This document shows positions 47,781-48,769 of a stretch of DNA of 48,769 nucleotides, in pieces. The position numbers and the translations under genes are program-made. The notes under the pieces are model-generated. The model had not been told where the DNA came from. It searched no databases and saw nothing but the letters and a program-made list of their open reading frames with translations. The stretch is taken from the IMG/VR virus record IMGVR_UViG_2880412407_000007, one strand, 5' to 3'. This stretch comes from a virus. Lineage: Duplodnaviria > Heunggongvirae > Uroviricota > Caudoviricetes. Position 1 is the first letter of the stretch; every line of letters begins with the position of its first letter.

Positions 47781-48200
47781 TTACTCATCATCAATAGATG
47801 ATACGCAATATTTATTTTTAAATTTAAGGTTCTTTGGCGTAACTTCATCAGATATATCAAAACCGTCCAGAATTCTATTGAATGTAGCTTCTGGCATATC
47901 ATCATGAACAGAAATCTCACCCGATCGCTGCTTTCTAACCATGTTATCCACTCGCCAAATTATAGCTTCAGCGTAAACAACATAACTTGGATGCTTGATA
48001 AAGCGATGATCACCGGAATTCAAGACGCAAGACGGATCGTGGGGGACCCCATCCTTGATACTAGAAATATTAACAACTAAAACACAATAACAATCGTTAA
48101 CGGGGTAATAAACAGGATCATTACAAATCACATGAAGATGATTGCATGGCCCAGTTGGGGCAAGCACAGTTCCTTTCCTGTATGGCTGATAATCCGTCAT
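47781..48200 (-). CDS. hypothetical protein (139 aa), candidate toxin/effector partner of the Panacea-domain protein
   Basis: Start codon overlaps the upstream gene's stop (ATGA); no recognisable motif. Confidence 0.45.
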   Translation of the reverse strand: MTDYQPYRKGTVLAPTGPCNHLHVICNDPVYYPVNDCYCVLVVNISSIKDGVPHDPSCVLNSGDHRFIKHPSYVVYAEAIIWRVDNMVRKQRSGEISVHDDMPEATFNRILDGFDISDEVTPKNLKFKNKYCVSSIDDE

Positions 48201-48769
48201 GATAATTGCAAAGAAAATTCCTTAAGTTTCTGAGATTCTTCCATTTTGCCAATTATGCGATTAGCCTCATCCTCGCTTTTACCCTCACTGATCAGCATTT
48301 CTTTCAGGTCTATAGGCTTACGAGAATTGCCAGGATTGTGCCACTCTGGACAAACGCTTTCTAAATGCGTCATGTTTGCGAGATCAAATCGGTTCATATG
48401 CCCATACAGAGAATAGATTTCATCTAAAATCCGGATATCTGCACGGCTCAACTCATCAAAGACCTCGTCTGCATCCATTTCCCTCGGATCTGAACGCAAC
48501 AACACATCATGCCCGTTCGTCTCTATCAAGTTGTACCAGTAGTCACCAATGCCTTCAGCCTTACCACGAATCAAGTTCAGCGTATTCGACATGACTGGAC
48601 CAAATTTCATAGAGTAAAGGCTATCTTCGCCGATCATCCTGCCATGCTTCAAAATCGACTTGCGGTTAGACAGATAGAGCAGCTTCATCAATTTCAGATA
48701 TGCCATGCGCCCACCTCGCTTAAGAAGTAGGTATGCAGCCATTTGAGCTACTTTTTCTTCGCAAAACAT
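48197..48769 (-). CDS. Panacea-domain (DUF4065, SocA-like) protein, candidate antitoxin
   Basis: 190 aa beginning at the last codon of the window; N-terminal AAYLLLKRGG...YLKLMKLLYLSN...SLYSMKFGPVMSN fits the Panacea signature as recalled. Confidence 0.6.
   Translation of the reverse strand: MFCEEKVAQMAAYLLLKRGGRMAYLKLMKLLYLSNRKSILKHGRMIGEDSLYSMKFGPVMSNTLNLIRGKAEGIGDYWYNLIETNGHDVLLRSDPREMDADEVFDELSRADIRILDEIYSLYGHMNRFDLANMTHLESVCPEWHNPGNSRKPIDLKEMLISEGKSEDEANRIIGKMEESQKLKEFSLQLS

Follow-up and report, generated by a model that had tools for sequence, protein, structure and literature searches.

Introduction

SocA of Caulobacter, the founding member of the Panacea (DUF4065) group, belongs to the type VI toxin-antitoxin (TA) system SocAB, in which it serves as a ClpXP adaptor for the degradation of SocB, a toxin that blocks the replication clamp. 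Here we describe an Escherichia coli prophage locus that carries the same antitoxin domain (SocA_Panacea) beside a toxin candidate to which SocB is unrelated. The locus lies at the end of a 48,769-nucleotide stretch of viral DNA (IMG/VR record IMGVR_UViG_2880412407_000007, Caudoviricetes), the whole of which we call the window, and it consists of two minus-strand genes: panA, encoding a 190-residue Panacea protein, and panT, encoding a 139-residue protein. An earlier account made from the letters of the window without database searches (the sequence-only reading) had proposed that these genes form a novel toxin-antitoxin or anti-phage module. We consider that they probably constitute a type II PanA-PanT module of an already published class, cluster T6, carried as cargo by a temperate E. 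coli phage that integrates at dusA.

Cluster T6 was defined when the genes neighboring those for DUF4065/Panacea proteins were surveyed and their partner toxins were clustered (Kurata et al., 2022, PNAS; PMC8832971). Its members are "hypothetical" proteins, labeled by HHpred as "EndoA/PemK/MazF-family RNAses"; the antitoxin gene precedes the toxin gene, mostly with an overlap of 1 or 4 bases, and the T6 PanA proteins lack an N-terminal domain (Kurata et al., 2022). Unlike SocA, the PanA proteins of that set neutralize their toxins by direct binding (Kurata et al., 2022), and a stand-alone Panacea domain can neutralize a toxin directly (Ernits et al., 2023; PMC10440598). The T6 pair of Pseudomonas moraviensis (PanT WP_083201923.1 and PanA WP_083354365.1) was studied experimentally: PanT is toxic in E. 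coli and specifically inhibits the incorporation of 35S-methionine (i.e., translation), and PanA both neutralizes PanT and pulls down with it (Kurata et al., 2022).

The window pair resembles the P. moraviensis pair in its gene order and -1 or -4 overlap, in having a stand-alone Panacea protein with a homologous N terminus and no N-terminal domain, and in the toxin, which in P. moraviensis has about 135 residues, a predicted MazF/PemK-like character, and no CDD or Pfam domain. The two pairs differ in that the Pseudomonas pair is flagged "NotPhage" whereas the window pair is E. coli prophage cargo, and their sequences have diverged by about 60–65%. With MazEF, Kis-Kid, and PemIK, the pair shares a two-gene operon in which the antitoxin comes first and a small toxin that (in the T6 homolog) inhibits translation. 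However, there is no detectable sequence similarity to these systems, PanT adds a predicted C-terminal two-helix extension, and PanA is a globular Panacea protein whereas MazE has an AbrB/SpoVT fold with a disordered tail. RexAB of phage lambda and other exclusion genes expressed in lysogens likewise occupy cargo slots of temperate phages, and in Pantoea a homologous pair sits at the exact rexAB position, but RexAB has no sequence or structural relationship to PanAT.

Results

The Window Pair Belongs to a Published Family

Three homologs of PanT lead to rows of cluster T6: WP_101821906.1 (P0238) is 57% identical to PanT, WP_025672779.1 (P0271) is 49% identical, and WP_114386270.1 (P0303) belongs to a sequence cluster whose representative (P0274) is 43% identical. 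For comparison with Pseudomonas we used the pairs of P. reinekei, Pseudomonas sp. NFIX28, and P. atacamensis as proxies for that of P. moraviensis itself. A scan of genomes for an ATG followed by IFSEQKVAQ, the N terminus of P. moraviensis PanA, returned nothing; when the ATG was omitted, the scan returned these three pairs, in which the start codon is TTG or GTG. P. reinekei (strain MT1) is the species in the T6 row next after P. moraviensis, and the PanA N terminus reads IFSEQKVAQ in both. The window PanA is 42% identical to P. reinekei PanA (E = 8e-41) and PanT is 36% identical to the P. reinekei toxin (E = 2e-29). Because T6 accessions are found among the homologs and the window pair is homologous to the P. 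reinekei pair, we place it in this published and experimentally anchored family.

This placement changes one part of the sequence-only reading and sustains another. The suggestion that the 139-residue protein is a novel toxin does not hold, as the protein falls in the T6 family and has a predicted MazF/Kid-like fold. The suggestion that the two genes are a toxin-antitoxin pair is well supported by the Panacea domain, by the conserved pairing described below, and by the family's experimentally validated representative. What is new is the E. coli prophage copy; the family, and the way in which it works, have been in print since 2022–2023. Several T6 members from Pasteurellaceae carry the RefSeq label "terminase" in Dataset S1 of Kurata et al., and this label is probably a propagated misannotation.

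The Panacea Domain Covers the Core of PanA

PanA matches the Pfam model SocA_Panacea (PF13274) well above threshold (67.9 bits; gathering cutoff, 25.7; E = 1.8e-18), and the match runs from residue 27 to residue 137 of 190, taking in profile positions 1–109 of 113. The hidden Markov model (HMM) match thus supports the Panacea signature that had been read in the N-terminal part of the protein, although the domain spans the core rather than just the N terminus. PanA has no N-terminal accessory domain, and it scores only 13.5 bits against the NCBIfam equivalog model for SocA (NF047745, cutoff 190), so it is not a SocA ortholog. About 50 C-terminal residues (138–190) lie outside the Pfam model and contain positions that are conserved in the cognate PanA proteins (I153, G163, K164, L182, and L189). 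This conserved segment is a candidate neutralizing element. A structure model of PanA computed from the single sequence was poor (mean predicted local distance difference test [pLDDT] score of 42) and was set aside.

The Two Genes Overlap, and the Toxin Start Is Probably Misannotated in RefSeq

At the junction of the genes (ATCATGACGG), the PanA stop codon TGA (48199..48197) overlaps the ATG of panT (48200..48198). The open reading frames (ORFs) and the junction agree with the ATGA overlap of two minus-strand genes that had been described earlier, and overlaps of -4 or -1 are usual both in the T6 rows of Dataset S1 and at the homologous loci. The overlap is consistent with translational coupling of panA and panT.

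The ATG of panA begins at position 48769, the window's final base. RefSeq gives an identical 573-nucleotide panA coding sequence with the same start ("Panacea domain-containing protein"), and the N terminus MF(S/C)EEKVAQ is common to the cognate PanA homologs; we therefore take this ATG as the true start. For panT, the RefSeq protein WP_014640052.1, which was annotated by the Prokaryotic Genome Annotation Pipeline (PGAP), begins at an internal GTG (codon 12) and is 128 residues long. Residues 1–11, including P6 and G10, are kept in homologs, so the ATG that yields 139 residues is likely the true start, and we flag as an error the RefSeq annotation that places the start of the toxin 11 codons late.

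Upstream of panA, a promoter scan returned a single weak match to the sigma-70 consensus (TTGACC-17-TAAACT, approximately 125 bp before the ATG), and sites of this kind were not above chance; the DNA there is not conserved between homolog contexts. The promoter had been expected beyond the end of the window and does lie outside it, but this weak match is all that was found upstream.

PanT Is Predicted to Have a MazF/Kid-like Fold

HMM searches of Pfam, NCBIfam, and PADLOC with the single PanT protein gave nothing significant, as anticipated for a gene that had been described as having no recognizable domain; the sole family match was to phrog_19071, which has no assigned function. Weak matches of PanT to ICMT and DapC were far below the cutoffs of those models and were dismissed. 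When a profile was run against 1.84 billion representative proteins, it defined a PanT family of 2715 members at E < 1e-3 (939 at E < 1e-10). Neither Pfam, NCBIfam, PADLOC, nor the PDB sequences gave a significant HMM match to the family alignment, and none of the ten family members that we checked against Pfam has a domain there.

An AlphaFold2 model of PanT built with 26 homologs reached a pLDDT of 89.8 and a predicted template modeling (TM) score of 0.83, and it consists of a β core followed by three helices. When this model was compared with the PDB by Foldseek, the best 50 matches were all MazF, with TM-scores (normalized to target length) of approximately 0.6, and the top matches in BFVD were a "PemK-like protein" and an "Endoribonuclease." PanT is thus predicted to have a MazF/Kid-like fold, and the assignment is backed by two structure-search methods and three libraries.

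Four residues (H21, L22, D55, and C58) are invariant in the PanT family, and conservation reaches 90% or more at seven others (G63, H65, F67, S72, Y76, G113, and S117). The MazF arginine is missing from PanT; a local pattern alignment puts H21, at the start of strand β2, in the position of MazF R29, and S46/S47 opposite MazF T52/T53.

The Pair Is Conserved and Occupies Diverse Cargo Sites

We examined nine independent contexts of PanT homologs, drawn from Shewanella, Vibrio, Pantoea, Enterobacter, Proteus, E. coli, and three metagenomic contigs. A Panacea gene lies directly upstream of the toxin gene, abutting or overlapping it, in all nine, over a range of toxin identities from 26% to 76%, and a tblastn survey showed that PanA and PanT diverge in parallel. 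The co-occurrence of the genes across genomes, which had been set as a check on the earlier proposal, is therefore borne out.

The surroundings of the pair vary. It resides in an integrase island in Shewanella, beside the repressor of a P2-like prophage in Vibrio, between K-like and J-like genes of a lambdoid tail module in Enterobacter, and, in the E. coli homolog, in an element that encodes a large polyvalent protein. In the Pantoea prophages it lies immediately 3' of cI and 5' of N, which is the position of rexAB in lambda; this location downstream of cI implies expression in the lysogen. In Proteus the pair is at a prophage end adjoining an Abi_2 gene. Directly upstream of PanAT there (locus L017, 1657..2721, minus strand) are genes for Abi_2 and for an S8 peptidase of the subtilisin type, which together with PanAT form a small defense-like cluster. 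Homologs also occur in deposited phages of Yersinia, Vibrio, Pseudomonas, and Klebsiella, where all are labeled hypothetical, and most of what a scan of viral contigs recovered was identical copies from E. coli prophages.

Of 5426 complete E. coli genomes, 205 (approximately 4%) contain the full 1370-bp region, and in the 25 best-matching genomes listed it is 99.5%–100% identical. Carriers include prophages of Shiga-toxin-producing E. coli (STEC) of serogroups O121 and O103. Two genomes stand apart, E. coli AR_0089 (NZ_CP032265.1) and O121 GTVSS-020 (NZ_CP176678.1): one carries IS903B within the region, and in the other the 1370-nucleotide query is matched across 1369 nucleotides and there is one less annotated ORF. 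Such genomes represent sporadic disruption either of the module or of the neighboring gene for a 57-residue protein.

The Pair Sits in a Variable Slot at the Prophage Edge

The features of the locus and of the far end of the window are collected in Table 1. The cassette that holds panA and panT has a GC content of 41.4%, compared with 52.2% for the whole window. Homology to phage mEp460 takes in the PrtN-family gene and the 57-residue ORF and ends at position 47754, and mEp460 holds an unrelated gene for a 177-residue protein in the slot. This mEp460 gene (gp23; locus L021, 3539..4072, minus strand) has no Pfam match and lies between the 57-residue gene and attP/int; it is an alternative cargo gene and possibly another defense candidate.

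Table 1. Features of the panA-panT locus and of the far end of the window
Feature	Position	Strand	Basis or remark
panA, 190-residue Panacea-domain antitoxin	48197..48769	-	Pfam PF13274; RefSeq WP_000458583.1
panT, 139-residue toxin candidate, cluster T6 member	47781..48200	-	Predicted MazF/Kid/PemK-like fold with C-terminal helical extension
Overlap of panA stop and panT start (ATGA)	48197..48200	-	Direct sequence reading
Low-GC cargo cassette, variable slot between phage backbone and attachment site	47755..48769		GC content; comparison with mEp460
57-residue basic ORF (isoelectric point [pI] 10.2)	47568..47741	-	phrog_2741, E = 1.5e-35; WP_000390069.1
Intrinsic terminator hairpin, 11-bp stem and T-run; ends minus-strand unit	~47524..47549	-	Terminator scan
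PrtN-family (excisionase-like) gene	47212..47520	+	PF11112; labeled excisionase in mEp460
Rv2179c-like 3'-5' exoribonuclease-domain protein	46627..47202	+	
Peptidase_M85 protein, 328 residues	868..1854	-	Pfam, E = 8e-113
ORF resembling IS3-family transposase orfB	1..819		By eye

The 57-residue ORF follows panT after a gap of 39 nucleotides that contains no terminator, and it is probably on the same transcript as panA and panT. We considered whether it might be a third part of the module and rejected this, as mEp460 has the ORF but lacks PanAT, and all other contexts of PanAT lack the ORF. Because mEp460 homology stops after this ORF and the content of the slot differs, we regard the ORF as phage backbone and PanAT as exchangeable cargo. 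The terminator sits between the minus-strand unit and the convergent plus-strand PrtN-family gene. The two-gene unit proposed to lie past this terminator is real and was placed correctly, but the 57-residue ORF intervenes. On the plus strand, the operon that runs toward this terminator closes with the Rv2179c-like gene and then the PrtN-family gene.

The position of the pair at the prophage edge, which had been proposed from the window, is confirmed by database records. In the record of E. coli O121 RM8352, which is 100% identical, a dusA fragment marking the attachment junction starts 253 bp past the end of the window, and in the circularly permuted record of phage SKA5 the integrase gene follows directly. 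At the window's far end, the Peptidase_M85 gene, whose Pfam family comprises NFkB-p65-degrading zinc proteases (NleC-type effectors of type III secretion), is phage-borne effector cargo; the ORF that precedes it resembles a transposase gene.

Discussion

Our favored reading, which we hold to be probable, is that panA and panT are a type II TA module of the T6 class. As the overlap suggests, PanA would be made first and PanT second from the same transcript by ATGA-coupled translation. By analogy with the P. moraviensis pair, PanA would bind PanT directly and keep it inactive, and free PanT would block translation, leading to growth arrest. The predicted fold points to RNA cleavage on a MazF-like scaffold as the most likely means of this block. 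The pair appears to travel between the cargo slots of prophages and islands, and its contexts suggest that the benefit to the lysogen would most likely be abortive infection or superinfection exclusion, or else prophage retention (addiction).

A number of observations weigh against this reading. PanT has no match to PF02452 (PemK_toxin) at E ≤ 1, and when we used hhalign to compare the PanT profile with E. coli MazF, Kid, and a 25-sequence MazF alignment, the probability of a relationship was 0.3%–0.4%; likewise, no MazF is found among the PDB HMM matches of PanT at E ≤ 10. Because these sequence tests showed no relationship, the link to MazF rests on structure and on the HHpred result of Kurata et al. 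The conserved H21, D55, C58, and H65 of the PanT family do not correspond to R29 and T52, the invariants of the MazF alignment, and RNase activity of PanT is for that reason not assured. PanT also has an acidic pI of 5.6, an uncommon property among RNA-binding toxins, and its identity to the Pseudomonas T6 toxin, taken from the P. reinekei pair, is modest at just over a third. With regard to a role in defense, the PADLOC-DB v2 models gave zero matches at E ≤ 1 for PanA, PanT, and the 57-residue protein, and our literature search turned up no published phage-defense test of the pair. Finally, some of the PanAT candidates of Kurata et al. (2022), including an E. coli T1 pair, were non-toxic.

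This last point bears on an alternative that we judge to be improbable, although it deserves some weight: that the pair does not arrest growth as a TA system in E. coli, either because it is a decayed or non-toxic copy or because it is a phage accessory whose MazF-fold protein merely binds nucleic acid or protein. Ernits et al. (2023) reported ten further NetFlax pairs that were non-toxic, and some T6 members bear the "terminase" label. Against this alternative stand the two intact ORFs, the near identity of the region in the best-matching E. coli genomes listed, and polar residues that are strictly conserved across a family of 2715 representative clusters. The obligate pairing with PanA in every context examined and the movement of the pair independently of phage structural modules also count against it.

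Two other explanations retain the fold or the phage setting and change the function. PanT could share the fold of MazF and yet act as a CcdB-like gyrase poison, with DNA gyrase as its target instead of RNA or translation; we think this very unlikely, because the effect of the homolog is specific to translation (Kurata et al., 2022). Alternatively, the phage-encoded PanA could be an antitoxin decoy that counters Panacea-type TA defenses of the host, with PanT as its accessory. Two reports describe phages that carry orphan antitoxin-like genes neutralizing TA defenses (PMC11825919; PMC10760071), and the pair is indeed located in phage genomes. Yet PanA is never an orphan here, being always coupled to and co-diverging with its own PanT; the pair is found in non-phage islands too; and the position downstream of cI implies expression in the lysogen rather than in lytic attack. 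We thus give counter-defense hardly any credence.

Returning to the T6 module as our preferred reading, we tentatively suggest two refinements of it, in the knowledge that they are rather doubtful. T6 PanT may combine a MazF scaffold with conserved His/Asp/Cys/His residues (H21, D55, C58, and H65) and an acidic helical tail, so that it may act by another chemistry, or on another target, than in mRNA cleavage of the ACA type; it might, for example, be a metal- or Cys/His-dependent nuclease, or act on a specific tRNA or rRNA. In addition, the stand-alone Panacea protein of the prophage may be a sensor that releases PanT upon infection by a competing phage. If that were so, PanAT would be a lysogen-expressed abortive-infection system that is missing from current defense catalogs.

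The locus also has practical value, as it provides a native E. coli copy of the PanAT class that is found in some 4% of the complete genomes of this species. Ernits et al. (2023) proposed that Panacea is a sensor domain, and because the pair occupies slots whose cargo is expressed in lysogens, for example the rexAB position, that proposal could conveniently be tested with it.
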